In this document: one piece after another, positions 3,012-48,872 of the stretch
Layout: every line of letters starts with the position of its first letter
Position numbering within the stretch: the first letter of the stretch is position 1
DNA from: a virus
IMG/VR virus record: IMGVR_UViG_3300036715_003254
Coordinates: 64,001-128,000 of that record
Length of the DNA: 64,000 bases
Strand: one strand, 5' to 3'
Made by a program: the position numbers and the translations under genes
The notes under the pieces: generated by a model
What the model was told of the DNA's origin: nothing
Database searches by the model: none
The model's input: the letters and a program-made list of their open reading frames with translations, nothing else

Positions 3012-3042
3012 AAAGGAGAGGGCTTAAGCCCTCTCTTTTTTA
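3012..3042. terminator. Hairpin terminator
   Basis: GAGAGGGC-TTAA-GCCCTCTC flanked by A and T tracts. Confidence 0.7.
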
Positions 3043-12000: not shown

Positions 12001-13677
12001 TGAGTTTCCTGTATCAGCAACAAATGCAGTTTTACTGTCTTGAGATACAAAAATATCAAAAGGATTGAAGAATGTTGCTAGAACACCTATACCATCAGTA
12101 GAACCAGCAGTACCTGAACCATAAACTGAGAAAACAGTATTACTTCTAAGGTCTATTACTCTTATTTTGTTGTTATTGACATCAGCAACATAAAGTTGTT
12201 CAAATCCGTCAAAAGCTATTCCTGAAGGATAGTTAAATGTAGCAGCATTTACTGGACCATCATAAGAACCAGCAGAACCTGTACCAGCAACAGTAGTTAC
12301 GCCGAAATTTGCTGATTTTAGATCTATCTTTCTAATTTTGTTAGCAGAAGCATCAGCAACAAAAAGGAATTGATTTGTTTCGTCTAATGCTAGAGAAGTC
12401 AATTGACTGAATGTAGCATTTAGACCTTTTTCAGAGTCTGTAGATCCGAATGTTCCAACAACACCAGCTATAGTAGAAACAACATTATTAGTAAGATCTA
12501 TTCTTCTTACAACATTGTTATTTTGGTCAGCAACATAAGCCATATTTGTTGTTTTATCTATACAGATATCAACAGGACTAGCAAATTGAGCTGAAGCAAT
12601 ATCTCCGTCAAGATAACCAGCAGAAGAAATACCTGCTACAGTAGTAGCTGAGCCATCAGCAACACTTACTTTTCTTATACAGTTATTACCCATATCAGCA
12701 ACATAAATGAAACCTGAATAGTAGAATAGTCCTCTAGGTTGATTGAATTTAACCTTTGAAGCGATTCCATCAACATATCCTGGAGTTCCACCAATACCGC
12801 AAAGAGTAATAGTTTTATTATTTGTTTGGTCTATTTTTCTTATACAGTGATTAGCTGTATCAGCAACATAAACATAAGTACCATCGTATGTTACACCTTT
12901 CGGAGTATTAAACATAGCTATTTTTTGATCACCTATATCAGTGTCACAGAAAATAGATGTTTGTGAAATATTTCCAGAGAATGGTCTTACTTCTCCTGTA
13001 GCAACAATATATTTTACTATTGTTCCGACTTGAGTTATATAAAGATCTGTACCATCAGTAGTAACATATCTTGGAGAGTTAAGTTGAGCATTAGTACCAA
13101 ATCCAGGTTTAAAACCAGCATTTCCAGAACCAGCAAGAGTTAAAACTTCAAGAGTAGTAAGGTCAAGAACTCTTAGTTTATGTTGTGCTTGTTGAACAAA
13201 GTAAAGTTTTCCATTCAAATAAGTTATACTTACACCAGATTGAATAGTAGCTGATATTCCTATACCATCTTGAGAACTAGAAGAACCAGAACCAGCAAGA
13301 GTAATTACCTCTCTACTATTTAAATCAATTTGTCTGATTCTACAACCAGCATTTTCTATAACATACAGTTTGTCTGTACCGTTTGTTGTTATACCATAAG
13401 GGTTGTTGAATGAAGCATTTATTCCGAAACCGTCTATTGAAGCATTAGAACCAGAGCCGAAATATGTTTCAGTCATTCCAGTATCCATATCAACAGTTCT
13501 AATTCTGTGGTTATTAGAATCCGCAATGTACAATTTATTACCAACAATTACTTGAGCTGTTGGAGTATTAAAAAGTGCAGTTGCAAAAGAACCATCTTTA
13601 TTAGTGTTAGCTGAATAAAGATTGTTTACTGTTGATTTTGGAACTGAAGGAAAAATTGGAGCAGTGTTTGCACTCAT
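3040..13677 (-). CDS. Giant (3545 aa) NHL-repeat multi-beta-propeller virion/adhesin protein with internal Kelch-like domain
   Basis: More than 40 repeats of F..P.G.....LYVADT.N..IRKI....V.T.AG.G..G..DG. Kelch/galactose-oxidase blades (LPDGRI...GG) at about 7000-7900. Termini MSANTAPIFP and VTVFGGDY. Confidence 0.85.
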   Translation of the reverse strand: MSANTAPIFPSVPKSTVNNLYSANTNKDGSFATALFNTPTAQVIVGNKLYIADSNNHRIRTVDMDTGMTETYFGSGSNASIDGFGINASFNNPYGITTNGTDKLYVIENAGCRIRQIDLNSREVITLAGSGSSSSQDGIGISATIQSGVSITYLNGKLYFVQQAQHKLRVLDLTTLEVLTLAGSGNAGFKPGFGTNAQLNSPRYVTTDGTDLYITQVGTIVKYIVATGEVRPFSGNISQTSIFCDTDIGDQKIAMFNTPKGVTYDGTYVYVADTANHCIRKIDQTNNKTITLCGIGGTPGYVDGIASKVKFNQPRGLFYYSGFIYVADMGNNCIRKVSVADGSATTVAGISSAGYLDGDIASAQFASPVDICIDKTTNMAYVADQNNNVVRRIDLTNNVVSTIAGVVGTFGSTDSEKGLNATFSQLTSLALDETNQFLFVADASANKIRKIDLKSANFGVTTVAGTGSAGSYDGPVNAATFNYPSGIAFDGFEQLYVADVNNNKIRVIDLRSNTVFSVYGSGTAGSTDGIGVLATFFNPFDIFVSQDSKTAFVADTGNSKIRAINTLTKEVNLLAGAGIVSYGDGISIPYSASFGLVSATAYDGRYYYIADANTYKIKRYDPITNTIMLIAGNGNSNLTDGFGMAASFGVISHMEYDATSNCLYFSDTTNHAIRRLELNNNFFISTMAGDGNASYSDGAGYFMASEVNEPRGVCSDGTTVYFTDTKNNKIRKYDIATGVVSTIAGTGQFGSLNGAGTSATFNLPKGICLDQTNTKLFVADTGNNMIRQIDLSNNTVTTIAGSGDNSSLDGNGLSATFNYPQGITQLNGVLYVADTNSNKIRSLTYNSTLSQWVVATVAGTGLNAVSQLNQDNAGINRPQYNVDGNTGSAVSFFQPTGITCDDQYLYVADTGNQRIRKVNPLNGATTTLAGSPSGAIGGTDGTGLNASFYSPTDITCDKSGNILYVTDTGNNKIRKIMTQTGAVYTIAGSGSAGSTDNSTGTNGTLNGPLGLCVSPTADYIYVADTKSNKIRRVSTSGYALSTIVGTGNTGSMDGVGQYSQAILASPNFCYLDEANNAVYFTDGNKVRKLDNKTGIITSVAGSGASGFADGPAVGIQASFNSPYNVVVDSASKYMYVADTANNKIRRVELATGNTITFAGTGSSGFVNGEGLNASFNTPVALCFSKDFNTLYVTDSGNNAIRKIDVATARVETLAGGASGFVDGNSTSAKFNSPKQICLGQGPLSDSLLVADTGNNAIRRIVIATGQVSTYSGLTSGSSGNFQGYSSGTPASFNSHKGIAQYGSILYVADSSNHKIRKIDMSTGAVSTISGTGTSGFTDGTNGAGSAFNGPQGVAVTNDGNYLYVADTGNHAIRKVTIATGATTTVVGAAAPNATAGYADGSQGSSRLNGPTDVILTPDNSTMYICEAAGNRIRSAAINNSYSTSTIAGASGANVGTAGGADGAGSNATCNNPSGGCLGASGVFYFVDSGGYTVRKITGLPNNPNVTTIAGSYNSSGYADGAPTATARFKAVYDIAVDANEANLYVADGGNYLIRRIPLDASGNAGNVVTIAGNTSSQSSAGNQDGQGPGGGSYNALIGSVYSLFVDSTGQYLFMADTTNHVIRRMDLTSGDVETYAGINGTYGSADGIRKLAAFNSPIGVACASDGTVYVGDAYNHRVRKINPSTGFVSHVTGSIFAQPGSLDGKYGQQAVFSSYNATGQLPLNGNNICKIGGDVFVADNKNGLRRIASDGTVSTISTKPMFSVCTDGTNVFTLSANCILKYSGTGWTTESTLSGSYNTSTQTTNTCSSTASSNNYYTAGTKNSMVYSAGKIYVQTHDTFRVVDTSTGSAVQLSYNNTQNDCYGYYSPTASIPTFQSALRGLSFISKNVTAIADVRSVKLWNQATGDISILAGSALSGLQDGAQINLVTPTDNYDTFSNYPAKTTKLPDGRIVSIGGSTDGTNGIKTVKIGTVSGNSTTWVASTDFPEAGVIEHSVATLPDGKIIVLGGYTDSSNKTACGSYIGTVSSDNKITWTSISACPNGTADGLLVVSGSNVVYLSSKSSVIGKYTGSDVSWGSLFSALPNSGGGVTGKSAITLPDGRIFVTGGMYSGNCQSEAYIGVLGSDTINWTSVTNLPYTMAYHKSLVLSNGYVVLVGGQTGNGKASALVFFAIISNNTVSYIQGNNLDTAGIVDSLILLSSSDNRVILLGMGSSTSSYTATSEVGYLSIPPTFTSITGITTDGTNFYVCDSSTVRKITQNGIVTTIAGSVMTGFENGTGANATFSTTLNDIVYSSGANCLYVADAGNNVIRRIDLATGIVSIACGNGQTSMGTGEGINASVGTVMAMAYDATNQDLWFTAYSSGDSNAAVRKYNEATQQVITIAGSGNGSVINGNLLSSRFSSTMNGIIVDSKNKKVYVSDTGNNVVRVIDLGFLPYPQVFSYTGSGVSSQTGHVDYVTATGIGKLCSIDKDKFLAITASSLGLVKYDISKNFVSTIISSFADSYSTSPAKMTSSKTALGSFGLSSGYFSVGLDGNIYAYNRANYTITKYDTTTGEFSQFLGTHGASGSASNCPAYKTTFSETGTYNDSISNIVWEDANTVWFFGQPYVRRISFATDDCQTINSSNSYGSTDGQYGSFTIAHIPGAIYDSNDKLIYFTNSNISTAVTTVRSFDVNSYYVETYAGGTKYSGSGASNDGVRLRPLITYPSYLSLSEDGSKLYIGNWNSGDARMRRLDISTNLVDTVLGDGTSGSNDTYGNFTRVGNGVLTPFYKSGKVYFADYANYKVRVYDETTKLTSVVAGSGYSGYTEGKAAVGMFNYPMGIVVDTNGDIYVADSSNNRIRKISNGQITTFAGKGVAGFADGKPSEAMFNNPNGLAWSSDKSTIYVADTNNNRVRYIDKATGKVGTLFGNGSASTVDGIGDSAAINGPMHMVEFEGNLYVTEYSGHRIRKYGLSDKRVSVFAGDGTKGYIDGTGQANTRFNNPWGICVSNNRELYVAEYSNHVIRRIDIDTCTVLLIAGTPPNNSTSDTTYPGNVDGYNTSTKFNYPRGIVCTADGTSLYVADQSNYKIRRVYPQLNVMVQTWAGTGNSGYADGVNLIARMNNPRQFVLDGNGNMFIADSGNNVIRKMKLSTGFLTTIAGDTSGSSSDGTGWGIASDGPKSKFNYPAGIAFDGNFLYVADYSGYRIRKVNPYNGYTTTIAGSGQGFLDGNGTSASFYNPAKLSLDASKENLYIVDVGYSKIRVMDIQSGLVSTLVNTSGKSNSYGIGNIAQVPLNLTIHSQITWISPTQFLIGNSAYVSKVDISSKTLTMELGVGSYPGNCMGKKATYQSTPIGMTKVGSTWYVSDVTKIKTVDDATGISAYFAGNPFGQSGFVDGSGGLSAALFGSIADIKYSASRNALFILDSQYHKVRKIDLTTGKVSTLAGSNFGIAGYSDDTMKLVYAAGPYGSRLDTFKVRPTSTTGSTVVRFFLNNGGDVKIKENNSMIAEISVPSISTTETGAQSEFFYYPNLSLDSGMRVYATLGTATSYGPNSPIAVTVFGGDY

Positions 13678-31580: not shown

Positions 31581-32639
31581 TTAAAAATCGTCTAGAGTAG
31601 TATCCTCTTTTTCGACAGGTTTAACGTAGAATGTGCTCAAATTCTCGAACATTTCGTTCAAGTTATGGGCTAGGAAGTAATCCATCATACCTTTTGAGTC
31701 GTAGTGTGCTTCTGCTTTAGAATATTCTTCGAGTATGGCTTTCTGAATATCTTCAGGAATATAATCAAAGTCTATGAGGACTTTGTTCCTTTCAAAATTC
31801 GATTTACAAATTTCCGGAAGTTTCTCAAAGTTTTCTTCAAAATTTTCGAGAAACTTATTTACTCCTACTTCACCAAACATAGCTTTCTTATAGATAGGCT
31901 TGTCGAGAAATTCAGTTTGATATTTCTCAATCAACATACCTGAGATTTGAAGCTTAAAGAACTTGTCTACTTCGGTGACGAAAATATTTTCTCGTCTAAG
32001 AAAAGAAATGAAATCCTTATGGAATTCTGATTCGGCTTTTATACTAGGAACATTATCGCCAGAATCGCCAAGAAGAATGTGGAATAGTTTAAAATTCCTT
32101 ACTTCTGGCTTAGTCATTTTAACGAATTCTTTCTTTATCGGATCGAAAAGACTTACATTATCGTATTCAAGCACTTGTTTATAGTCTTTATCAGAAGACA
32201 CGACTAGCACTTTCCTTTTCTTAGAAAGATTCTTAGCCAAAACTCCACAAACATCATCAGCTTCAGCTCTATCGACATAAACAACCTTTACTGGAAAACT
32301 TGTTTTTAAAGCTTCCAGAACATCGTTTACTACAGCGAAAAATTCGTTGAAGTCTATATCAGAATTTTCTCTTCCGGCGGCTCTATGTGCTTTATATTCT
32401 TTATAAAAATCTTTTCGCCAATTATTTTTAGCGTCGCAAGCTATTACTATTTCGTCATTCCACTCGTTAAATTTGTTCGAGAAAATATATTTCAAGTTGT
32501 TGAACAAAAGATGTCTGAAGAAGTCTTCATAGTCTTTTGTTCTAAACTTTTTAGTAGTTTTATCGACTTTTAGTTTGAGTTGAAATATGGAAACATAAAG
32601 CAATCTATGAGCTAAATGGCTAAAGTCCATTAAGACCAT
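31581..32639 (-). CDS. rnh: RNase H / 5'-3' exonuclease
   Basis: WRK..Y..YK..R, AEADD, SSDKD, GDSGDNVP. Confidence 0.9.
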   Translation of the reverse strand: MVLMDFSHLAHRLLYVSIFQLKLKVDKTTKKFRTKDYEDFFRHLLFNNLKYIFSNKFNEWNDEIVIACDAKNNWRKDFYKEYKAHRAAGRENSDIDFNEFFAVVNDVLEALKTSFPVKVVYVDRAEADDVCGVLAKNLSKKRKVLVVSSDKDYKQVLEYDNVSLFDPIKKEFVKMTKPEVRNFKLFHILLGDSGDNVPSIKAESEFHKDFISFLRRENIFVTEVDKFFKLQISGMLIEKYQTEFLDKPIYKKAMFGEVGVNKFLENFEENFEKLPEICKSNFERNKVLIDFDYIPEDIQKAILEEYSKAEAHYDSKGMMDYFLAHNLNEMFENLSTFYVKPVEKEDTTLDDF

Positions 32640-32643
32640 TATA

Positions 32644-32814
32644 TTATTGTGCCTTTCTTAGCTTTTCTATTTTCTCTTTAAACTCATCTTCTATAAATGG
32701 AAGAAGTATAGCGAGGAGCTTCGCATTTTTTGCGTCGCTCTCAGGTCCATACATTTTTGCTATTTCAAATTCTGAAAGAATTTTGTTATATTTTTCTAGT
32801 TTTTCTTTTGACAT
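32644..32814 (-). CDS. Small hypothetical protein (56 aa); not in ORF track
   Basis: MSKEKLEKYNKILSEFEIAK...; fills the gap between gp32 and rnh. Confidence 0.55.
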   Translation of the reverse strand: MSKEKLEKYNKILSEFEIAKMYGPESDAKNAKLLAILLPFIEDEFKEKIEKLRKAQ

Positions 32815-32825
32815 TTTTCCGCCTT

Positions 32826-33752
32826 TTAACCTATTAGATCGTCAAGAAAATCTAAATCGTCATTGACGCTTTTTGTTTCCGGAGCTTCCTCGACTTTCTT
32901 TTTTGTAGGTTTTTCTATAGTAGCTTGTTTTTTAACTCCAATCTCTTTAGGTTTTTCATCTTCATCAAAAGGTACATCATTATTTTTAATCTCAGCTCCC
33001 TTTACAGTTTTTTGACCTGTTTCAGCAAAAGTCAAAAGGGCTTTCAACTCATTATATGGTTTAAAGTGAGCTGGAGAAATAAACTCATCCAGTTTGTAAC
33101 AATTTTTGTTTATAAATTCTACCGCAGCTTCAGTAGATTTGAAAACAGCACTTGCATCAAGAATTGTTGTATCATCATAATTAAAGAAGTTATTAGCTTT
33201 CTTAATTTGAAGACTAATTGAAGATCCATTCGCTGTAGGATCGAAAAGTTGTTTTGGTTTTACGCCTACTTCTCTCATAGCTTCTGTTGGATTCATAGCT
33301 GCTATGAATTTGTCCATAAGTTTGGTGCCGAATTCCCAGAGGAACACTTTACCGTTGTTTTCCGGACAGCCTGGATCTTTTACAACAAGTATGTTAGCTA
33401 TATACTTGATTTTTCTTGAGTATAGTTTCGCTTTTTCTTGATTACCACTGTTCCATAGTTCTTGCCATTTTTCAGAAGCTGGACACGGAAGACCTATTGT
33501 TTCAGGACTGTCTTGAATGTAGTAAAAGTCTTTACCGTTTCTTGTAAATTTTATTGAGTGATGGAATATTTTGACAAAAGGTTTAGCGTCTGGACCTGCT
33601 GAGTCTGGTAGTAATCTAATTACAGCTGCTCCTGTACCACTTTCATCTTTAGAAAGCTTCCAAAACCTTGAGTCTTTGAAGTCTTTTTTCTCTCCTGGAA
33701 GAGCGTCTTTTTGTAGATTTTGTTGAAGTGTTTCCCACGAAAATTCAAACAT
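32826..33752 (-). CDS. gp32: ssDNA-binding protein (start revised to 33752)
   Basis: D.RFWKL.KD..G.G.AVIR.LP, NILVVKDP..PENNGKVF, acidic tail; AAGGA RBS. Confidence 0.9.
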   Translation of the reverse strand: MFEFSWETLQQNLQKDALPGEKKDFKDSRFWKLSKDESGTGAAVIRLLPDSAGPDAKPFVKIFHHSIKFTRNGKDFYYIQDSPETIGLPCPASEKWQELWNSGNQEKAKLYSRKIKYIANILVVKDPGCPENNGKVFLWEFGTKLMDKFIAAMNPTEAMREVGVKPKQLFDPTANGSSISLQIKKANNFFNYDDTTILDASAVFKSTEAAVEFINKNCYKLDEFISPAHFKPYNELKALLTFAETGQKTVKGAEIKNNDVPFDEDEKPKEIGVKKQATIEKPTKKKVEEAPETKSVNDDLDFLDDLIG

Positions 33753-33756
33753 TTTT

Positions 33757-33927
33757 AATTCCTTTTTAAACGATTTGTGAACCGCTCCTTCGTAAAAGAA
33801 GAGCTTCCTAACTAACAACTTCCAACGAAGTTGAGCACGAAAGGCTTTGTGTTTATAGTCCACAAGGCTAGTTCCTAGCCCAAACGACTATGATTATATT
33901 ATATAATCAGTCGATAGCAAAAACAGA
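33757..33927 (-). ncRNA. Stand-alone TnpB omega-RNA cassette (mini IS605 derivative)
   Basis: GTCGTTTGGGCTAGGAACTAGCCTTGTGGAC...AAAGCCTTTCGTG...GTTAGGAAG...GCGGTTCAC matches the 3' ends of both tnpB loci; putative guide AAATCGTTTAAAAAGGAATT. Confidence 0.8.
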
Positions 33928-33969
33928 TAGATAAAAACGAACGCCAAATTCTTTAGACTGATTTATTTA

Positions 33970-34671
33970 TCAGTTTTGTTTTGGTTTCTCAGCTACCAGA
34001 ACTTCAAAAGTTTCTAGAGTATTTGAAACAAATTTAAAAATCACTTTACCTGACGCATTTCTATGTATAGAAACTCTGTATGTTCCTAGAGGAATTTTTT
34101 TAAAGTTATCATTGCTCAAAGAAAGCATAACATCTTCTTTCGACTCGCCGTCACATTTAATAGAAAAAGTATTTCCGAGAGTTTCTGAATCAAGAGAAAT
34201 TGTTATTTCATCATCAGACGATGAGATTGTGATATTTTCTAGATCTTTAAGAACGCTTGACGCCTTTCTTAGTTTACCCATATCTTCGTCGCTAAGAGTA
34301 AACGAAATAATCGGTTCAATAGAATCAACCTTGTCAAATATACTAAAGTTTAGTCTATATTTGTCTAGTAGGTCTAGGTCTGATGTGTAATATGTGATTT
34401 GTGTTGACCTATCAGAAAGAATAAGTTTTGAATCTTCTTGTTTAATTTCCGGATCTTCAAGAAGTTTCACTACTGATAGAAATTCGGAAAGTTTTCCGAG
34501 CAAACCGAATTCTTCAAACTCTTCAGAGTCGTATCTAGAAAGATCGATTTTGGCCATAATGGTTGAATCTATATCTTTAATCCCGAGTATAGGATAAGAA
34601 ACAACTAGGCTTGAAGAAATATCTTGTAATTTTGACAGGATTGTCAACGAGTTTTTGTTAAGCATTTTCAT
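33970..34671 (-). CDS. gp45: Sliding clamp
   Basis: 233 aa; EFG...LSEFL..V.L..DPEI, F.LS..D..KL.KAS.VL, NFKKIP.G.Y.V. Confidence 0.8.
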   Translation of the reverse strand: MKMLNKNSLTILSKLQDISSSLVVSYPILGIKDIDSTIMAKIDLSRYDSEEFEEFGLLGKLSEFLSVVKLLEDPEIKQEDSKLILSDRSTQITYYTSDLDLLDKYRLNFSIFDKVDSIEPIISFTLSDEDMGKLRKASSVLKDLENITISSSDDEITISLDSETLGNTFSIKCDGESKEDVMLSLSNDNFKKIPLGTYRVSIHRNASGKVIFKFVSNTLETFEVLVAEKPKQN

Positions 34672-34771
34672 CCTTCAAACGAAATTAAAGTTTTTCGGTC
34701 TTACGACAAAATGTATTTTGAAAGCCGAAAACTTTTAACTTCGGTTATTATAGCCGAGAAAAGTTTAACAA

Positions 34772-35275
34772 TTAATACCAAACGAAGTATTTTCCTTTTG
34801 TAAGCTCTATATAACCGATGAGTTCTTCCTTCATATCAAGAAAGTCTTCTTTGTCTAAAACATAGATAGTCTTTTTGAAAATCTTTTTCGCTTCTTCGTC
34901 TAGTGTAATGAACTCTTTTTTACCGACTTGAATTTTTGTTTTAAAGATTTTCTCTTTCAAAATTTTCATATCATCATCAGTCAATTCAGGAAAATCATTT
35001 TTGATTTTTGTGAAGTCAACAACGCTTGAGTAGTCTGTTTTTACTGAAGAGATTTTCTCTCTGAATTTTCTCGGCCATTTGACACAGTGTGTATCTATAA
35101 AAAGAGTTTTCTTCATTCCTTTACCCTTAGAGACATCATAGATTCTTTTGAAATCTACATCTTCTTCTAGCTTATATTTTTTAGCTAGAACAGTAAAGGT
35201 AGCTAAATGAATTCCAAGCTTTTCGCTTAATTCTGATGTAGAAACAAAGTTTTTTCCTAAAGTGTATTGTGTCAT
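34772..35275 (-). CDS. Hypothetical protein, possible N-terminal HTH
   Basis: VSTSELSEKLGI; 167 aa. Confidence 0.55.
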   Translation of the reverse strand: MTQYTLGKNFVSTSELSEKLGIHLATFTVLAKKYKLEEDVDFKRIYDVSKGKGMKKTLFIDTHCVKWPRKFREKISSVKTDYSSVVDFTKIKNDFPELTDDDMKILKEKIFKTKIQVGKKEFITLDEEAKKIFKKTIYVLDKEDFLDMKEELIGYIELTKGKYFVWY

Positions 35276-35517
35276 ATTCTTCCTTCCTGTTTAAGTTGTA
35301 GGATTTTTATGATGTCATTCTTAGTTACATTCAAATCTTTTTCGAAAGACATTTCAAGTTTCCACCCGTATTTTGTTTGAGAGTATACATAGACAAAACG
35401 AGAATGGCGAACTATTTTTAATGTGGTATTATTCGCTGTAAAATAATCATCTTGTTTTTCATCATAACAGCCAGAAAATAGGAACAATACAATAATAAGA
35501 AAGAGTATCCTTTTCAT
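35272..35517 (-). CDS. Lipoprotein
   Basis: Lipobox FSGC after a hydrophobic stretch. Confidence 0.65.
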   Translation of the reverse strand: MKRILFLIIVLFLFSGCYDEKQDDYFTANNTTLKIVRHSRFVYVYSQTKYGWKLEMSFEKDLNVTKNDIIKILQLKQEGRI

Positions 35518-35969
35518 TCGAATAGTCCTTCTACTCTTCTTCTAGACTCATCTTCAAGTTGTTTTTGAAGTTTTTCACATTTTTCTTTGTAGAATTTTAA
35601 TTGATTCTTAGTAGTTTGTAGCTCAAAATCATTAGCAAGAAGTTCGCCTTTATGTTGTTTTTTGATTCTCTCTAAGTCGTAGAGAGCTTTTTCTACGCTT
35701 TCTATAACAGTTTGTCTTCCTTGATTTTTAAGTGAAAGAGATTTATTTTGAGAAGACAAAACTCTAACTTGTTCTTCAAGGTCTTTTATTCTTTTTTGAG
35801 TTTCAAAGTCCACACCAAATAGAGCGTCAATATCAACACCTTTTAGGCTTTCTGAATATTCGAGAATTTTATCTATAAAAAGGTCCGCATTTCTTTTTAT
35901 ATCAGCTTTTGAAGCTGAAAGTCCTTTAAGAGTTTTTAGGACTTTGTATGCTGTTTTTACATCGTTCAT
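35514..35969 (-). CDS. Coiled-coil hypothetical protein
   Basis: 151 aa, AGGAG RBS, own early promoter. Confidence 0.6.
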   Translation of the reverse strand: MNDVKTAYKVLKTLKGLSASKADIKRNADLFIDKILEYSESLKGVDIDALFGVDFETQKRIKDLEEQVRVLSSQNKSLSLKNQGRQTVIESVEKALYDLERIKKQHKGELLANDFELQTTKNQLKFYKEKCEKLQKQLEDESRRRVEGLFE

Positions 35970-36033
35970 AACGAACTCCTAAAAAAGATAAAGAATTATA
36001 CCTTGTCTTTTCTTTAAATAAGCTTAAAGAAAA

Positions 36034-36150
36034 TTATTTTTGATGCGTTTTGAAGTAAGCGGACGCCTCTTCGGAAGTTGAGAATTTTTTTCCTGACAAA
36101 TTCAAAACATACGGAGAAGTATCACCAAAATAAGAAAGAGTCAATATAGA
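36034..36150 (-). pseudogene. 3' fragment of a ~100-aa repeat-family gene
   Basis: SILTLSYFGDTSPYVLNLSGKKFSTSEEASAYFKTHQK* aligns to the family C-terminus and starts right at the IS right end. Confidence 0.7.
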
Positions 36151-36270
36151 GTGAACTGCCTACTCCTTAAAGGAGTCGGCTTCCTAACTAACAGCTTCCA
36201 GCGAAGCTGAAACACGAAAGGCTTTGCGTTTATATAAGTCCGCAAGGTTGGTTCCCAACCCAAACGACTT
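36131..36270 (-). ncRNA. omega-RNA/right end of tnpB-1
   Basis: Overlaps the tnpB 3' end; ends GGCAGTTCAC at 36151; putative guide TCTATATTGACTCTTTCTTA. Confidence 0.8.
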
Positions 36271-37593
36271 CATACCTCTATACAATATATGTACTGAAGC
36301 TTGATGGTCAGGATTAGTCTGATGACCACAAGCTGTACATATAAATTTGTCTTGTTTAGGTCTATTGTTCTTATCAATATTACCACAGTTTAAACAAGTC
36401 ATAGAAGTATAGGAAGGATCTACTTTTACAAACAATTTGCCATTAAGCGACTGCTTGTATTCAAGCATAGATATAAACTGATAGAATGAAGCTCTTAAAA
36501 TTGATTTATTTAAACCTGCTTTTTGTCTTACATTTTTTCCGTGCTCGACTTCATTTCCTTTAGCAGATTTAGTCATTTGCTTTAGTTTAAGGTCTTCAAC
36601 TACTATCAAATCAAATTTGTTTGTTAATCTGGAGGAGATTTGATGATATAGATCCGTTCTTTTATTGATAATTCTTTTTTGTAGTTTATTTAATTGTTGT
36701 TGTGTTTTATTATAGTTTCTCCCTAGTTTGGTTTTTGATTTTTTGTTTTTTAGAATTCTTCTAGACTGCTTTCGCAAAAGAAGTTTGATTCTTTTGTTAT
36801 TCAGCATTGCTTTACGATTAGCAGAACCGTTGTTTATTAGATGTCCTGATTCAACCGATACTAAGTTTGGTATCGATTCAAAGAGAAAATCTACATCGTT
36901 TGAAACTGCAAAGTTATAAACATTCATATCTATACCTATACAATTTTCTTCATTCAAATTGTCGATAGATACAGGTTCTATTTCTTTTTCAAAAGAAATT
37001 CCTATGCTAGCGTAATAACCAGTCGCATCTCTAGATATAACAACAGAAGTTAACTTATATTCTTTTGGAAGTTCTCTATGATATCTTAGTTTTATGTTTT
37101 GCTTCATCAATTTCAAAATAGCAGTTCTTTTATCTGTTTCTTTAATAGATACTGCTTGATTGTTCCACACAAATGATTGTCTTACATCTTTACTTGATTT
37201 AAACTTTGGAAATCCGATTGATAGCGCTTTTGCTTTTTCTTTTGGAGTTTTTGCGTTTTGTAAAGCTTTATTTCTTTCATTAACAACATTTTTTGAGAAA
37301 GCTCGTTTAGTCGCCTTAAGAAAATTTATTCTAGCTTGTTGAATAACAACGGAAGAAAAAGGAATATTTCTAAGTTTTAAAGCTCTTTTTATAACTCTGT
37401 CGTAAGACGAATCCTTCCTGTATTTTCTATCTGCTTTCTCTAGCTTTCTATTTCTTTCTTGTTCTTTTTGCCATAGATTAAGACAGATGTTGTAGGCTTG
37501 ATTATAAACGAACATTTGATGGTCGAGAAGCTTCTTTTGTTCTTCTGTAGGATAGATCTGATATTTATAACCTAGATTTACAGTTTTGTTCAT
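36184..37593 (-). CDS. tnpB: TnpB RNA-guided endonuclease (IS200/IS605 family), copy 1
   Basis: YKY.IYPT.EQ HTH; GFPKFK; RuvC IGID, VVEDL, NPD; CLNC/CTAC zinc finger. Confidence 0.95.
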   Translation of the reverse strand: MNKTVNLGYKYQIYPTEEQKKLLDHQMFVYNQAYNICLNLWQKEQERNRKLEKADRKYRKDSSYDRVIKRALKLRNIPFSSVVIQQARINFLKATKRAFSKNVVNERNKALQNAKTPKEKAKALSIGFPKFKSSKDVRQSFVWNNQAVSIKETDKRTAILKLMKQNIKLRYHRELPKEYKLTSVVISRDATGYYASIGISFEKEIEPVSIDNLNEENCIGIDMNVYNFAVSNDVDFLFESIPNLVSVESGHLINNGSANRKAMLNNKRIKLLLRKQSRRILKNKKSKTKLGRNYNKTQQQLNKLQKRIINKRTDLYHQISSRLTNKFDLIVVEDLKLKQMTKSAKGNEVEHGKNVRQKAGLNKSILRASFYQFISMLEYKQSLNGKLFVKVDPSYTSMTCLNCGNIDKNNRPKQDKFICTACGHQTNPDHQASVHILYRGMKSFGLGTNLADLYKRKAFRVSASLEAVS

Positions 37594-37754
37594 ACGAGAT
37601 TAATATTGTTCCTTAATAAGATTAATTATTTATTTGTAATCGAATTTTGTTTGAAATAGGTTCACTAAAGAAAATTTTTAATTTAGTTATTATACTATAA
37701 AAAAATTTAAATTAAACGAAAATAAAAGAAGACGAGATAACTCCACCATCACCT

Positions 37755-37981
37755 GTAGGACGGCGATATAAACACATTAAATTAACATTTAACAATTTTC
37801 TGCTTTTGCTATCGACTAACTATAACAAATATGATATAATAATCATAGTCGTTTGGGCTGGGAACCAGCCTTGTGGACTATAAACACAAAGCCTTTCGTG
37901 CTCAGCTTCATTAGAGAAGCTGTTAGTTAGGAAGTACCGCCGTTACGGCGGTACGGTTTATATTCAGAAGTGAGTTTAGAA
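37755..37981 (+). mobile_element. Non-autonomous mini IS605 element: degenerate left end plus omega-RNA
   Basis: TAGGACGGCGATATAAACACATTAAATTA (left-end half), TATAAT, full scaffold 37847-37961 ending GGTTTAT; putative guide ATTCAGAAGTGAGTTTAGAA. Confidence 0.8.
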
Positions 37982-38010
37982 ACGCCTAGATATTTTTCGA
38001 TGTTTTTCAT
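37960..38010 (-). pseudogene. 5' fragment of a ~100-aa repeat-family gene
   Basis: MKNIEKYLGVSKLTSEY with the family RBS and promoter (38015-38070), truncated by the mini element. Confidence 0.8.
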
Positions 38011-38179
38011 TTTGAAATCCTTTTTTAATTTCAAAAATTATAGCTAAACTTTTCTTTAAGAAAGCTTAATTCCCGAAAGATTTAAATATTTCGGTGTAAT
38101 CTTTAAGCAAATTTTTAACCGATTTATTGTGGAAGAAAACAATCCGTTATCAATAGAAAGGTCGTCAGAGGAATGACGA

Positions 38180-39082
38180 CTATTTTTCGTAATTTTCGAT
38201 AATCCATTCAAGAGATTTGTATTTGAAACCTGAAGGAACAGTGTCAAAATATCCAGTATAAATTTTGTTAATTATTTCGCCTTCAGCGATCTCGCTATAA
38301 ATCGGATCTTTTACAGAGACGCCTTTAGCTTCGAAATGCGCTCTTAACATCTTATAGAGTCTTTCTATCGTCACAATATTTTCCGGAGCAATAATATCGT
38401 ATGTTTGCCCCCAATACTCGTGTCGGAAATCATCTTCGACATCTTTAATAGCATATTCGATGCCGAAGATGAAATCTTCAACAGAAGTGAACGATCTAAG
38501 AGGAGAGAAATTTTGAGACGAAATATGAATTTCACAAACATCATTATTCATCATCTTGTTGTAGAAGTTTGCAAATACGCCGCTTTCTGGATTTTGATAT
38601 TTTCCAACTATATTGAAGAGTCTGAACACTATCGCAGGACTGTAAAATGTGTTAAAAATAACAGACTCGGTATATAGTTTATTTAGAGCGTAAAAATCTC
38701 TTTCGCTAGTAGAAAGAGGTCTTGTATCGTCAAAATGAAGCCCGTCGTAAACTTCAGATGTGCTCGTGAATATGACAGGAACTTTAAGTTCTCTTAACTC
38801 TGGAATAAGAATTTCTATTAAAAGAGCATTGTTTTTTATGAATGATTCTGGATTATTTTGAATGTATTTCACGCCGACAGAACTTGCGAGATTAATAACC
38901 ATCTCAGCGCCGAATGTTTTGAGATCTATCGGTTTTGTTAAATCATATTTAAAAAATCTGTCTTTATGAGATTCTAAAATAGGCTCTTCTCTATCAATTA
39001 GAACCAACTCGTGTTTGTCTTCTAACGCTTCAACAAGATGTGTTCCTAAAAATCCGCTACTTCCTAAAATCATTATTCGCAT
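38180..39082 (-). CDS. NAD-dependent epimerase/dehydratase (start revised to 39082)
   Basis: GSSGFLG, TSTSEVY, YALNK, RLFNIVG. Confidence 0.85.
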   Translation of the reverse strand: MRIMILGSSGFLGTHLVEALEDKHELVLIDREEPILESHKDRFFKYDLTKPIDLKTFGAEMVINLASSVGVKYIQNNPESFIKNNALLIEILIPELRELKVPVIFTSTSEVYDGLHFDDTRPLSTSERDFYALNKLYTESVIFNTFYSPAIVFRLFNIVGKYQNPESGVFANFYNKMMNNDVCEIHISSQNFSPLRSFTSVEDFIFGIEYAIKDVEDDFRHEYWGQTYDIIAPENIVTIERLYKMLRAHFEAKGVSVKDPIYSEIAEGEIINKIYTGYFDTVPSGFKYKSLEWIIENYEK

Positions 39083-45487: not shown

Positions 45488-45742
45488 TTCGGCTCTCCTT
45501 TCTTTATACAACCAGAAATCTTGAGACTTAACTACAATAAATTTGTCTCGACTGGTTCTTATGTGTTAGGGTGTTCTTCCTTTTACTCCTTTAAGCAATT
45601 ATACACATATTTTTATAAGGTAGTATTCTACCAACCACTTTGACGCATTTCCAATTCCTTTAATTTAGATAGATAATCTTATCTAATTTTAAATTAAAGA
45701 AATCTTAAAAGAAAATCGGCTCATTTAAGAGCCGAGATCCTA

Positions 45743-46162
45743 TCACTTAATTTCTATTTTAGTGATTTCAGGTTTTTTAGGCTGTTTTGAAACTATTTTC
45801 AATCTCAAAACACCGTCGTCCATCTCTGCAGAAATGTTTTCTACTTCTTCAAGAAGCGTTAAAACTCTCTTGAAAGATTTACTTGAAGATTGTTTCAAGA
45901 AGTATACATAGTCTTCAGAAACCTCTTCTTTTTTAGATTCTCCAGATATAATAATCTTACCTTCTTTCAGCTCGATATTAATATCTTCTTTTTTGTAGCC
46001 CGCAATAAACAGCTCTACAATAGTTTCTTTCGTTTCTTTGTTTACTTTGATGTCAATAGCCGGAAATTCTTTTTTCGGCATTTCTTTTACCGGAAATAGT
46101 CTACTTCCATCAAACATAGAATCGAAAAGTTTAAACGGATCTTCAAATCTTTTTTGTAGCAT
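45743..46162 (-). CDS. hsp20: Small heat shock protein
   Basis: FP.IDI, AGYKKEDI, FKRV.TL, A.M.DGVL, C-terminal IEIK. Confidence 0.9.
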   Translation of the reverse strand: MLQKRFEDPFKLFDSMFDGSRLFPVKEMPKKEFPAIDIKVNKETKETIVELFIAGYKKEDINIELKEGKIIISGESKKEEVSEDYVYFLKQSSSKSFKRVLTLLEEVENISAEMDDGVLRLKIVSKQPKKPEITKIEIK

Positions 46163-46285
46163 AGTGTTTCTCCTTAAAAAGCGAGTATTTTTGGACTTAC
46201 ATCAACAACAAAGACCTGACTGTTGAATGCCAAAAATTATTTTATCTATATTTAGTTTAACTATTTACACCAACTTTAGTAATAG

Positions 46286-46726
46286 TTATTTATATGATGA
46301 ATTTTGTTGTTTTTCTAACTGAAGCAATAGTGCTTTTAGTTTTGAAAATTTTGGAAATATTACCAATCTCAAAATATCACCATCTAATTTCGCAGAAACC
46401 TCTTCAACTTTTTCATTGATCGTCAACACTCTTTTGAAAGTTTTACTTGCAGACTGTTTTAAAATACAAGCACAAGATTCCGGAAACTTTTCTTTCGCTT
46501 TACCTTTTATTATGATTTTATTTCTTTTCACTTTGACTTTAAGTTCTTCTTTTTTAAAGCCTTCAACTTTCAGTTCTACAATAGTTTCTTCAGTTTCTTC
46601 GTTTACCTTTATATCAATAGGAGGGAATGCTTCCTTCGGTATATCTTTCATTGCGGCGACCTTTTGATATTCGTCAAGCCAAGAATCAAAAGGAGTAAAT
46701 GGCTTTTTAGGGTTTTTTTGAGACAT
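46286..46726 (-). CDS. Hsp20 paralog
   Basis: Same alpha-crystallin motifs. Confidence 0.85.
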   Translation of the reverse strand: MSQKNPKKPFTPFDSWLDEYQKVAAMKDIPKEAFPPIDIKVNEETEETIVELKVEGFKKEELKVKVKRNKIIIKGKAKEKFPESCACILKQSASKTFKRVLTINEKVEEVSAKLDGDILRLVIFPKFSKLKALLLQLEKQQNSSYK

Positions 46727-46779
46727 AATTTTCCTTTAAATGAAGTATTTCGGCGCTTAAATGAACCAATTTACTTTGT

Positions 46780-47124
46780 TCACTTTAGATTAGATATTTT
46801 TGAAACTATTCTCATTTTCAAAACATCGCCTTTTAACTCAGCGAACACTCTTTCTACTTCTTCATAAAGCGTTAGAACTCTTTTAAAAGTTTTACTTGAA
46901 GTTTGTTTGTAGAAGTAAGCATAATCTTCAGGAAGCTCTTTTTCTATTTTTCCAGTTACAATTATTGACTTCCCTTCCACTCTGATGTCAATATCTTCTC
47001 TTCTAAATCCTGTAACAGACAACTCTACGACCGCTTCTCTCTTATCTCCGTATTCTAAAATACTCACAACTGAATATTTCTTTTCTTGACAATCGATATT
47101 TTCCAAACCAACAATTTGAAACAT
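46780..47124 (-). CDS. Hsp20 paralog
   Basis: GFRREDI, KQTSSKTFKRVLTL. Confidence 0.8.
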   Translation of the reverse strand: MFQIVGLENIDCQEKKYSVVSILEYGDKREAVVELSVTGFRREDIDIRVEGKSIIVTGKIEKELPEDYAYFYKQTSSKTFKRVLTLYEEVERVFAELKGDVLKMRIVSKISNLK

Positions 47125-47140
47125 AAATTCTCCTTTTTAA

Positions 47141-47476
47141 TTAGTAAATTTCTATTTTAGTCATTTTAGGTTTTTTCGCTATTCTTGTAAATATTCTCAT
47201 TTTCAGAATATCATCTTCCAAGTCGGCATAAACCTTTTCTACTTCTTCGTGAAGTGTAAGAACTCTTTTGAAATATTTGATTGAAGACTGTTTTAGGAAA
47301 TACATATTATCGTCTGGAATTTCTTTTTTCACTTCACCTATTATGGTTATTATATTTCCGTATATTTTGATACTAATATCTTCTCTTTTAAAACCTGTGA
47401 CAACCATTTCTGCTGCTACTTCTCTAATTCTTCCGTCTTCCAAAATATTACAAAAAATGTATTCATTAGCACTCAT
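47141..47476 (-). CDS. Hsp20 paralog (start revised to 47476)
   Basis: GFKREDI, FKRVLTL, IEIY; AAGGA RBS before MSANEY. Confidence 0.8.
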   Translation of the reverse strand: MSANEYIFCNILEDGRIREVAAEMVVTGFKREDISIKIYGNIITIIGEVKKEIPDDNMYFLKQSSIKYFKRVLTLHEEVEKVYADLEDDILKMRIFTRIAKKPKMTKIEIY

Positions 47477-47540
47477 TTTTAATCCTTTCTTGTGGTATAA
47501 AATTTTAATATAGTTTAATGTATTTAATACATCAACACCT

Positions 47541-48395
47541 TTACAGCAATGAACCTTGTACATATTTCTTAGTATTGTTCTTTTTATTTTCTGCTTGTAA
47601 TTTCAGTTGTAATTTTTCTATTTCTGCTTCAAGTTTAGCTACAGTCTGTTCTTCATCATATACATATTCTGAAAATAGATACTTATGGTCTTCTGGTAAT
47701 ACATTATACATAGCAGTTGCTAATTCTCTTATTTCCCACAAAGCAGAAGGACTAGTTCTTAGTTGTAGAAAATTTTGAAGTGCTCTAGCATTTATAGTAT
47801 ACACTAATTCTGTTTTATATGACTCTATAAGAGCATATTTTGATTTATCGTTTGATATTCCTTCTACTACAAGTTTTCTAACTTCTTCTAGACCTCTAAT
47901 ACTAGCCAAATCTACTTCAGCAACACCTGTAATAACAATGTATTTTGATGCTCTCTTAATATGTTCTTCAGATCCATCTACAGCTAAGAATGGTTTTTCA
48001 TTTCTTAACTCTTTCAGAGTATATCTTGTCGATTTTACTGACATTGAAGCTATTCTGTGTCTAGCTAGTTCTTGTAGTAATGCTCTACTAACACCAACAA
48101 TATCAAAGCTATAAACAAGATGTTCTAGTGTAGATGAATGTTTGTTTTTATTTCCAACTCTATCTATTAAAAGTCTATCATTTGGACCACATTCAGTAGT
48201 GCTTATATACATTTCACTATCACAGTCATCACAATAACCATAACCACTAGGAAAGCTAGATACTATATTAGTACTTCCACATTTTACACATGTGTGTGTA
48301 GTTACAGTATCAGATTTATCTTGACTTTGCCAACATTTACGTATAGCATAAGAAGCTACCCAAAGTGGTGTATAGTGTAATAGAGTAACTTTCAA
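47541..48395 (-). CDS. thyX: Flavin-dependent thymidylate synthase
   Basis: HSSTLEH, SRALLQELARHRIAS.SVKSTRY, NARALQNF..LR. Confidence 0.93.
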   Translation of the reverse strand: MKVTLLHYTPLWVASYAIRKCWQSQDKSDTVTTHTCVKCGSTNIVSSFPSGYGYCDDCDSEMYISTTECGPNDRLLIDRVGNKNKHSSTLEHLVYSFDIVGVSRALLQELARHRIASMSVKSTRYTLKELRNEKPFLAVDGSEEHIKRASKYIVITGVAEVDLASIRGLEEVRKLVVEGISNDKSKYALIESYKTELVYTINARALQNFLQLRTSPSALWEIRELATAMYNVLPEDHKYLFSEYVYDEEQTVAKLEAEIEKLQLKLQAENKKNNTKKYVQGSLL

Positions 48396-48485
48396 AATTT
48401 ATCCTTTTTATTTTTATTATAACTTTCTTTTGTTTAAATTTATAGTGGTCATTATTATCTTTACACTAGACCAAAGTTTATTCTA

Positions 48486-48857
48486 CTATGAAAAATCGCC
48501 ATAAATGAATGAATAACCTTCATTGTCAAGGAAACAGTTTTCTGCTTGTAGTCTTGCACCTATCTCACCTGCTTCAGCCTCACTTTTTATATACTCACAA
48601 TAGTTCATTTTATTTTTCTGATGTGATGTTACTAGAGATATAAACTCTGTTAGTTTTATTCTTCTTCTATACTCATCAAGTATCATAGAATTAGATTTTT
48701 GAATATATTTTAGCCAATCCATAAATGATTTAATATCTACATTATCACCTCTAGCTCTTGAGTATCCTTGAAAAGTAAAAGTCCAACCTTTTGCTGTTTT
48801 ACCTATATGTAATTCTTCACCTGTTCTTATTGATTTAGCATAATAATTATTACCCAT
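48486..48857 (-). CDS. Conserved-looking phage hypothetical protein
   Basis: MG.NYY...HIGK...GW.F.FQ...I.DEY...D.EGY.F...DFS. Confidence 0.65.
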   Translation of the reverse strand: MGNNYYAKSIRTGEELHIGKTAKGWTFTFQGYSRARGDNVDIKSFMDWLKYIQKSNSMILDEYRRRIKLTEFISLVTSHQKNKMNYCEYIKSEAEAGEIGARLQAENCFLDNEGYSFIYGDFS

Positions 48858-48872
48858 CTTTGTTCCTTCTTT

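Follow-up and report, generated by a model that had tools for sequence, protein, structure and literature searches.

TnpB, the RNA-guided nuclease of IS200/IS605-family insertion sequences (IS), is regarded as the ancestor of Cas12, and an open step in Cas12 history is how several separate guide genes came to serve a single nuclease. Homing driven by TnpB, and palindrome-associated transposable elements (PATEs) that often encode omega RNAs needing TnpB in trans, are described in part of the study of Meers et al. (PMC10055086). In phages, the TnpB-only IS200/IS605 elements ISCaje1-4 are found in Campylobacter phages CP220 and CPt10, according to a portion of the report by Timms et al. (2010, PMC2853527). 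IStrons present a conflict between intron and guide RNA, in which one transcript has mutually exclusive fates, as laid out in part of Zedaveinyte et al. (PMC10690162). The present analysis concerns a 64,000-nt stretch of viral DNA (hereafter the window), positions 64,001 to 128,000 of the IMG/VR virus record IMGVR_UViG_3300036715_003254, a genome of 138,481 bp with a CheckV completeness of 94 and 32% GC. In this window, the scaffold of a TnpB omega RNA directly precedes gp32, the gene of the single-stranded DNA-binding protein (SSB). We conclude with high confidence that the block is an omega-RNA cassette of IS605 type, devoid of tnpB and inserted at TTTAT. With moderate confidence, and on sequence grounds, it is proposed to supply a guide that acts in trans, either for RNA-guided homing or for the exclusion of alleles.

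An omega-RNA cassette between two replication genes

The cassette is 154 nt long, contains no open reading frame (ORF) and is flanked by the sliding-clamp gene, whose stop codon lies at 33970, and by gp32, the gap between the two being 200 nt. Both flanking genes are conserved replication genes, and all genes here are on the (-) strand. Only a non-coding 5' module separates the TTTAT motif from the scaffold (Table 1), and no tnpB ORF overlaps the 5' part of the scaffold, where tblastn gives only ~19 residues encoded by the scaffold itself. The scaffold end is separated from the gp32 ATG (33752-33750) by 24 nt (33776-33753), in which the ribosome-binding site AAGGA (33764-33760) occupies guide positions 13-17. 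A preliminary description of the locus had reported a TATAAT box, a full scaffold and a 24-nt interval to the ATG, with the guide lying over the ribosome-binding site, and every coordinate agreed on re-reading. Position 33752 is taken as the true gp32 start because the N-terminus aligns from residue 1 with that of L009, the closest relative (66% identity); the start of a longer GTG-initiated ORF was rejected, the ATG at 33752 being the one that fits this alignment. The resulting geometry, TTTAT followed by the cassette and then by a flank that becomes the guide, is that of an IS200/IS605-family element, from which the cassette is derived.

A BLAST search of the phage genome with the gp32 scaffold returned five more copies (E 1.8e-37 to 1.1e-22), and nhmmer with a 12-sequence profile recovered six complete copies, from the gp32 scaffold itself at E 4.8e-33 to E 3e-28, the next match having E 0.053. 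Three copies are linked to tnpB (two intact genes and one cut by the contig end) and three stand alone, the two groups being 85-91% identical to each other and the gp32 copy 85-90% identical to the tnpB-linked ones. No two of the six copies have the same terminal hairpin sequence (alignment columns 99-121), but all six hairpins are paired; outside the hairpin, the copies are likewise 85-91% identical. When the six phage copies were aligned with six scaffolds of Campylobacter and Helicobacter elements, RNAalifold gave a consensus of 29 pairs, 16 of which show changes on both sides. Paired cells amount to 93.4%, versus 80.2% in shuffles and 31-51% in slid controls, and the observed covariation score was reached by none of 500 shuffles. 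In helix 4, a compensatory change from G-C to A-U is found in the gp32 copy and in the stand-alone copy near the contig start; together with the paired terminal hairpins, this is taken as selection on RNA structure in the stand-alone lineage. At the gathering threshold, Rfam gave no family for the scaffold in the whole window. The sole match at that level is an unrelated group I intron (RF00028, 22884-23160 (+), 85.4 bits, E 2.5e-20).

By sequence and secondary structure, the block in front of gp32 is an IS200/IS605-family TnpB omega RNA. The right boundary of the element is the scaffold end, and the guide is flanking DNA; this boundary is fixed by a cassette-free joint at 33776/33777 in two metagenome runs and by the empty site of a related Campylobacter IS, both described below.

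The principal alternative is that the cassette is an inert relic, an IS605-family element that inserted at TTTAT, lost its left-end hairpin and its tnpB, and now guides nothing, being tolerated or perhaps retained as a supply of promoter for gp32. We regard this as possible, although less probable than a guide function. The lack of a left-end hairpin and of tnpA is what a relic would show. On the other side, the stand-alone copies keep every helix, with compensatory changes, and have three different, fully paired terminal hairpins.

Stand-alone copies share a promoter-like module

The three stand-alone scaffolds constitute a separate lineage with shared derived features. They differ from the tnpB-linked ones by 3 nt fewer in one loop and 1 nt fewer in another, in both respects like cellular scaffolds. 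All three are preceded by a common 5' module, absent from the tnpB-linked copies, whose start is at about CTG(T/C)TTTTGC and in which a -10-like box lies 1-6 nt ahead of the scaffold start. This shared, specific module is a second point against an inert relic. A promoter scan called a site directly 5' of the scaffold in two of the three: TTGCTA-16-TATAAT in the gp32 copy (10/12) and TCGACT-17-TATAAT, with TG before the second hexamer, in the plus-strand copy (10/12). The scan made no call for the third copy, where TTGCTT-16-TATAAG can be read by eye. In the region 33600-34100, two promoter-like sites were found against a shuffle mean of 1.2, a count that is non-significant on its own; since site counts per region do not significantly exceed those of shuffles, the sites are consistent with promoters without proving them. 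The preliminary description of a genuine omega-RNA scaffold with a promoter-like site is borne out. No left-end-type hairpin resembling the right-end hairpin was found in the 5' module of the gp32 cassette. A candidate origin of this module, the antisense strand of a small-gene family, was discarded, just a 9-nt word and loose similarity being shared.

The plus-strand copy has its own peculiarities. At 37934-37961, its scaffold terminates in GG and then TTTAT, not GGTTCAC, and its last hairpin with the T-rich tail scored as terminator-like (9 pairs, 7 of them G-C). The sequence 3' of it is antisense to a conserved motif of a family of small genes and differs from four of the paralogues by 1-2 mismatches. 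The third copy faces the tnpB3-linked scaffold (C1:101-218) across 600 bp and ends 20 nt before an ATG with GAGGAG ahead, so that its guide covers a ribosome-binding site too. The ORF that follows has, by our own reading, ~28 codons and contains a long inverted repeat.

Scaffolds without tnpB are also found in cellular genomes. A family-specific pattern, run against viral contigs with the phage's own record left out, found five loci, all five tnpB-linked. The same pattern in contigs representing one genome per species found 64 loci with 66 scaffolds, mostly in Helicobacter, with others in Nautiliales, Thiovulum and Campylobacter metagenome-assembled genomes (MAGs). Upstream of these 66 scaffolds there was a full-length TnpB match in 9, a partial match in 8, the contig end in 17 and no match in 32; the last number is an upper bound, as at least L093 and L094 retain tnpB-like 3' sequence. 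Many of the 32 have a left-end hairpin 30-40 nt before the scaffold and are thus PATE-like. That tnpB-less scaffolds are common family debris in cellular genomes, in up to 32 of 66 cases, is in favor of the relic.

Same-family scaffolds also occur at L097, L100 and L068 in an uncultured Nautiliales MAG. The L097 scaffold is tnpB-linked, and the 3' end of that tnpB encodes, in our own reading of the DNA, ..ETNPDIQAS.. versus ..QTNPDHQAS.. in the phage. Together with the vent and sediment origin of the metagenome runs, the Nautiliales scaffolds hint at a deep-branching Campylobacterota host.

Candidate nucleases encoded in trans

Two complete tnpB genes, tnpB1 and tnpB2, lie 2.3 kb and 17.7 kb from the gp32 cassette. 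Their products match the Pfam families OrfB_IS605, Cas12f1-like_TNB and HTH_OrfB_IS605, and the 3' end of each gene overlaps a homologue of the gp32 block with the same GTTCAC terminus. A third tnpB, at the contig start, consists of the last 62 codons only, with a linked scaffold. TnpB1 aligns with the solved TnpB-family chain 9j09_A at E 8.2e-27. Three of its residues, D in IGIDMNV, E in VVEDLKL and D in NPDHQAS, align with motif residues of that chain, positions that we take to be the RuvC catalytic triad, and a CxxC...CxxC zinc-finger motif is present, its cysteines aligning with the solved structure. Judged from these motifs, the phage TnpB nucleases look active. A dead repressor of the TldR type, defined by loss of the RuvC catalytic residues, is unlikely because the motif residues are retained. 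The presence of three tnpB loci, two of them complete, in the same genome also argues against an inert relic.

The closest TnpBs in annotated records are those of Campylobacter plasmids (45.8%) and Helicobacter (41-43%), and among viral contigs only two loci with TnpB relatives were found, both weak. A search of the phage genome for the Y1 transposase tnpA (PF01797) gave no match, whereas the control search was positive in 10 of the 14 reference genomes.

For a reading of the phage's own adjacent motif, a left boundary was sought for the elements that carry tnpB1 and tnpB2; none was found, the upstream regions aligning weakly. Homology upstream of the two genes seems to run into a remnant resembling the right-end hairpin. 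About 125 nt upstream of tnpB2, at 53105-53131, a hairpin followed by AGTTCAC resembles the right end of a scaffold (nhmmer remnant, E 2.1), and a weaker counterpart lies upstream of tnpB1. The hairpin upstream of tnpB2 could either mark a left end or be left over from an earlier element.

The probable transposon-adjacent motif

The motif recognized by the phage nucleases can be approached through relatives. A C. jejuni plasmid IS with tnpA and tnpB (TnpB 45.7% identical) carries a scaffold of the same family with the same GGTTCAC end, and its left end follows TTTAT. In a plasmid that lacks the IS, this TTTAT runs straight into the sequence found after GGTTCAC in the plasmid with the IS, this being the one empty site examined of the many listed. 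Read by left-end homology only, two further relatives have a comparable arrangement: the PATE-like locus L105 of a Campylobacter MAG has TTTAT, a left-end hairpin, the promoter-like TATGATATAAT and the scaffold, in this order, and a Helicobacter phage IS has CTTAT ahead of the homologous left end. In the phage genome, the frequency of TTTAT is 0.004 per position and strand, so its occurrence exactly at the left junction of the cassette is unlikely by chance. On the strength of this junction and of the relatives' motifs, TTAT is accepted as the likely transposon-adjacent motif (TAM) of the phage TnpBs. The TTAT motif put forward in the preliminary description, in the form TTAT or TTTAT, fits both the left flank of the cassette and the insertion site of the related Campylobacter IS.

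A possible cycle of homing or allele exclusion

The proposed guide function would proceed as follows. The cassette would be transcribed from its own promoter, and its scaffold would be bound in trans by one of the intact TnpBs of the phage, in which two of the three tnpB loci are complete. With the first ~16-20 nt of the gp32 leader as guide, the complex would cleave the unoccupied site of a co-infecting relative, in which TTAT stands directly before the guide sequence, cutting at the gp32 ribosome-binding site and start codon. Repair of the break from the cassette-bearing genome would then copy the cassette together with nearby markers. The outcome would be RNA-guided homing or localized marker exclusion, as with Seg and Mob, except that the nuclease would act in trans. 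The phage's own copy is expected to be immune because its target is preceded by GGTTCAC, not TTAT. Elsewhere in the phage genome, no target of the gp32 guide with fewer than three mismatches in 16 nt was found.

A cassette-free allele in natural populations

Logan contigs of four public runs, from sediment, microbial mat and hydrothermal vent metagenomes, were compared with positions 32600-38200 of the window. A cassette-free joint of 33776 to 33934 was found in one contig of run X3 (depth 6.6) and one of run X4 (depth 27). In these contigs, 24 different letters take the place of 157 nt; the shorter side has 30 letters, and the joint is unambiguous. A 605-nt contig of X3 that shows a single difference from the window stops exactly at 33776, as would be expected at a branch of the assembly graph. 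A cassette-free allele therefore exists, as the preliminary description had supposed, in populations that also contain the phage's sequence. Its right junction is the exact border between scaffold and guide. To the left, both alleles read alike as far as a run of T, after which one continues with TAT and the cassette and the other with AAT and a repeat of the first 8 nt of the protospacer; allowing one mismatch, the cassette starts directly after T(T/A)AT.

The same runs bear on the possibility that a repeated scaffold was misjoined to the gp32 locus during assembly. A six-copy repeat invites such errors, and cross-mapping joints between copies are seen among the contigs: for the joints 33889->36361/36371, 33899->37830 and 38019->36179, the best reading is cross-mapping between copies of the scaffold or from other tnpB loci. 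The region 33300-34400, with both junctions, is nevertheless present in four runs (0.99 and 0.97 of sampled words in two, 0.93 and 0.83 in two more). The gp32 copy also has a unique terminal hairpin and unique flanks, and the alternative branch begins exactly at the biologically expected border, which leaves an artefact highly improbable. Runs X5 and X6 gave no cover at the cassette junctions.

Several observations weigh against an active guide. TnpB needs a TAM-proximal seed match. In the cassette-free allele, AAAAT stands directly before the intact protospacer, and the position equivalent to TTAT reads TAAT and is followed by only 8 guide-matching nt. Relative to a simple excision product, this allele has a T-to-A change in the motif and 21 extra nt that make an 11-nt direct repeat; as each of these differences should by itself block TnpB, its cleavage is improbable, and the earlier expectation that the guide would cut it is not supported. 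L009 has TTTGTT before a protospacer-like sequence with an indel, with neither TTAT nor a perfect protospacer. TTAT directly before the protospacer, as the preliminary description expected of relatives, is found in none of the three alleles, the cassette-free allele and L009 included. Among what would refute its proposal, that description named the lack of any empty allele with a TAM. This is the case for the three alleles, yet the cassette's own TTTAT flank implies that a site of cleavable type existed at the time of insertion. The depth of the cassette-free contig, a crude measure of abundance, is 27 versus 25-32 in the flanks in X4 and 6.6 versus 12.5, about half, in X3; being at least as abundant as the flanks in X4, the cassette-free allele shows that the cassette has not swept. 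TTAT is also absent at the left end of the two other stand-alone copies, and the TAM is deduced from relatives of only 41-46% identity. With no tnpA and no left-end hairpin, the arrival of the cassette at three loci is not accounted for. Related phages may carry modified DNA, which could block TnpB, and there are no RNA runs among the listed sequencing runs.

This pattern of alleles fits a homing cycle that has run out against resistant alleles, or an inert relic, for which the coexistence of an abundant cassette-free allele, not cleavable under the TTAT rule, is a further argument. Searches for the exact 27-nt gp32 leader gave no match in viral contigs and none in metagenome contigs. The 18 gp32-related loci in viral contigs include L009 as the only close one, and the 11 in metagenome contigs are all at most 42% identical, none being usable as an empty site. 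No scaffold was found at these gp32-related loci in either collection.

One RNA with two possible ends

In T4, gp32 regulates its own translation by binding its own leader, where the operator comprises a pseudoknot and an unstructured A/U-rich tract that gp32 binds cooperatively. A third explanation of the cassette is that it acts in cis, as a structured gp32 leader whose ribosome-binding site would be buried or severed by TnpB binding or processing. SSB synthesis would then be tied to the level of TnpB, an outcome analogous to T4 gp32 autoregulation. The argument for it is one of geometry: the scaffold ends 24 nt from the ATG with the ribosome-binding site in the guide, and the scan found neither a terminator-like site nor another promoter-like site on the gene strand between the promoter-like site of the cassette and the ATG. 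As 24 nt is too short for a promoter and no terminator-like site intervenes, transcripts from or through the cassette would carry the scaffold as the gp32 leader. By this geometry, gp32 transcripts starting in the cassette or arriving by read-through from the clamp gene must bear the scaffold ahead of the ribosome-binding site. The earlier claim that the cassette forms the gp32 leader thus stands as to layout, the content of the transcript being predicted from it. One RNA can then have two possible ends, as gp32 mRNA or as guide RNA, and since guide positions 13-17 are the ribosome-binding site, a TnpB-bound transcript would be lost to translation. The contig-start copy, also placed 20 nt before an ATG with GAGGAG, adds to this case.

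Other evidence makes control in cis unlikely. The cassette-free allele and L009 express gp32 with no cassette, the stand-alone copy in the disrupted small gene leads no gene, and the ORF after the contig-start copy is, as noted above, very short. A fold predicted from the single sequence leaves the ribosome-binding site unpaired and gives the leader no unusual stability (z -1.89, with 8 of 200 shuffles folding as well). Ranked by probability, a homing guide is the best supported explanation, followed by an inert relic and then by gp32 cis-regulation.

Genomic context

The features of the cassette and of the related loci are collected in Table 1. Downstream of gp32 come a 5'-3' exonuclease carrying the C-terminal domain of T4 RNase H, a gene labelled primase-like from Pfam matches under curated cut-offs, and a helicase.

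Table 1. Location of the gp32 cassette, its flanking genes, the other stand-alone scaffolds and the complete tnpB loci.
Feature	Position	Strand	Remarks
TTTAT, presumed TAM	33931..33935	(-)	immediately 5' to the cassette; end of the homology to the cassette-free allele
5' module, 41 nt	33890..33930	(-)	TTGCTA 33920-33915, 16-nt spacer, TATAAT 33898-33893
omega-RNA scaffold, 113 nt	33777..33889	(-)	terminus GGTTCAC; BLAST, nhmmer and covariation-supported fold
guide segment	33757..33776	(-)	defined as the first 20 nt past the scaffold; cassette-free joint at 33776/33777
gp32, single-stranded DNA-binding protein gene, 308 aa	32826..33752	(-)	Pfam PF08804, E 1.3e-38
sliding clamp (DNA polymerase processivity factor)	33970..34671	(-)	upstream neighbour; phrog_223, E 5.4e-21
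second stand-alone scaffold	37847..37956	(+)	same type of 5' module; inside a disrupted small early gene
third stand-alone scaffold (locus L003)	genome C1:820-935, outside the window		near the contig start
tnpB1 (36184-37593, 469 aa) with own scaffold (36269-36151)	36151..37593	(-)	candidate trans nuclease
tnpB2 (51571-52980, 469 aa) with scaffold (51656-51539)	51539..52980	(-)	86% identical to TnpB1

The region 36151-37956 forms a 1.8-kb composite within a disrupted small early gene, made of the plus-strand scaffold, a spacer of ~200 nt and tnpB1 with its scaffold, and is bounded by two outward-facing scaffolds. One contig of X4 (depth 18.7) joins 36150->37957, that is, at the end of the plus-strand scaffold, from which it follows that some phages lack the whole composite. 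Reading this joint as an in-frame rejoining of the small gene was rejected, as the intervening letters are undefined and ~43 codons are missing relative to the ~100-aa paralogues; the joint carries no information on the TAM. The small early gene family itself (about 90-100 aa, N-terminus ..EKYLG.SKLT..) occupies 45600-57720, with tnpB elements among its members; each gene has a conserved promoter-like block and a ribosome-binding site (repeat families D1 and D8, 7 and 10 copies). Elsewhere in the window, 3040-13677 (-) is a 3545-aa ORF with many diverged repeats of ~170 nt period (families D2-D7, D11 and D15).

Implications

This phage, of virulent type, has three tnpB loci, two with complete genes, and three separate putative guide genes made of a promoter-like module plus scaffold, and natural populations are polymorphic for the insertions, with borders precise to a single nucleotide. 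It offers a testable natural case of trans-acting omega RNAs, of RNA-guided homing or marker exclusion between phages and, possibly, of a resistant allele, and suggests that an essential, highly expressed gene can tolerate a structured guide RNA as its leader. On a more speculative and rather improbable view, the arrangement would be proto-CRISPR-like: a few TnpB genes would be served by several promoter-driven guides each written by its own insertion site, with which the phage would attack co-infecting relatives and drive homing at conserved replication genes. The cassette-free allele, with its TAAT motif and the 21-nt duplication splitting the protospacer, would be a selected escape allele, and TnpB loading at gp32 would compete with SSB synthesis. 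If the cassette is a relic, its interest is confined to annotation, tnpB-less scaffolds of the family being common in Helicobacter.

Comparison with known systems

PATE-like or mini IS200/IS605 elements are similar in having a right-end scaffold with no nuclease gene, dependence on TnpB in trans, a flank that serves as guide and TTTAT on the left. The phage cassette differs in having the right-end hairpin only, with no matching hairpin at the left, and is therefore immovable by TnpA, unlike L105 and the H. pylori mini-elements, which have both. It also resides in a T4-like phage lacking tnpA and abuts the start of an essential gene, so that guide and mRNA leader are one RNA.

CP220 and CPt10 are likewise T4-like phages of Campylobacterota with several TnpB-only elements at sites that differ among related phages; stand-alone guide cassettes do not figure in the portion of that report (PMC2853527) used for comparison, and the TnpBs of the present phage are closest to the Campylobacter plasmid and Helicobacter copies. 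The Seg and Mob homing endonuclease genes of T-even phages, as treated in part of PMC13565253, resemble the cassette in being small selfish elements between conserved essential genes. They also share the predicted cut in the unoccupied allele with repair from the occupied genome, as in localized marker exclusion, self-immunity given by the insertion itself, and a natural presence/absence polymorphism. Recognition in the phage would be by RNA guide and TAM, not by protein. A free-standing homing cassette encodes its own nuclease, whereas here the nucleases are encoded elsewhere in the genome.

The likeness to IStrons, as far as the relevant part of PMC10690162 describes them, would be that of one transcript with two mutually exclusive fates, the alternative fate in the phage being an mRNA leader, not a ribozyme. 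Like the T4 gene 32 translational operator, the cassette would be a functional element within the 5' leader of gp32; no relation in sequence or structure turned up, the comparison being limited to a single-sequence fold with no direct alignment of the two.

The limited literature searched, seen in part, contained no description of stand-alone phage guide genes or of TnpB-mediated exclusion between phages. Already known, from the portions of these sources considered here, are PATE omega RNAs used in trans and TnpB-only IS in Campylobacter phages; stand-alone scaffolds of the family are common in Helicobacter genomes. What is new is their setting in a T4-like phage without tnpA, as a promoter module plus scaffold without left-end hairpin present in three copies, together with the fusion to the gp32 leader between two replication genes and a precise natural polymorphism.

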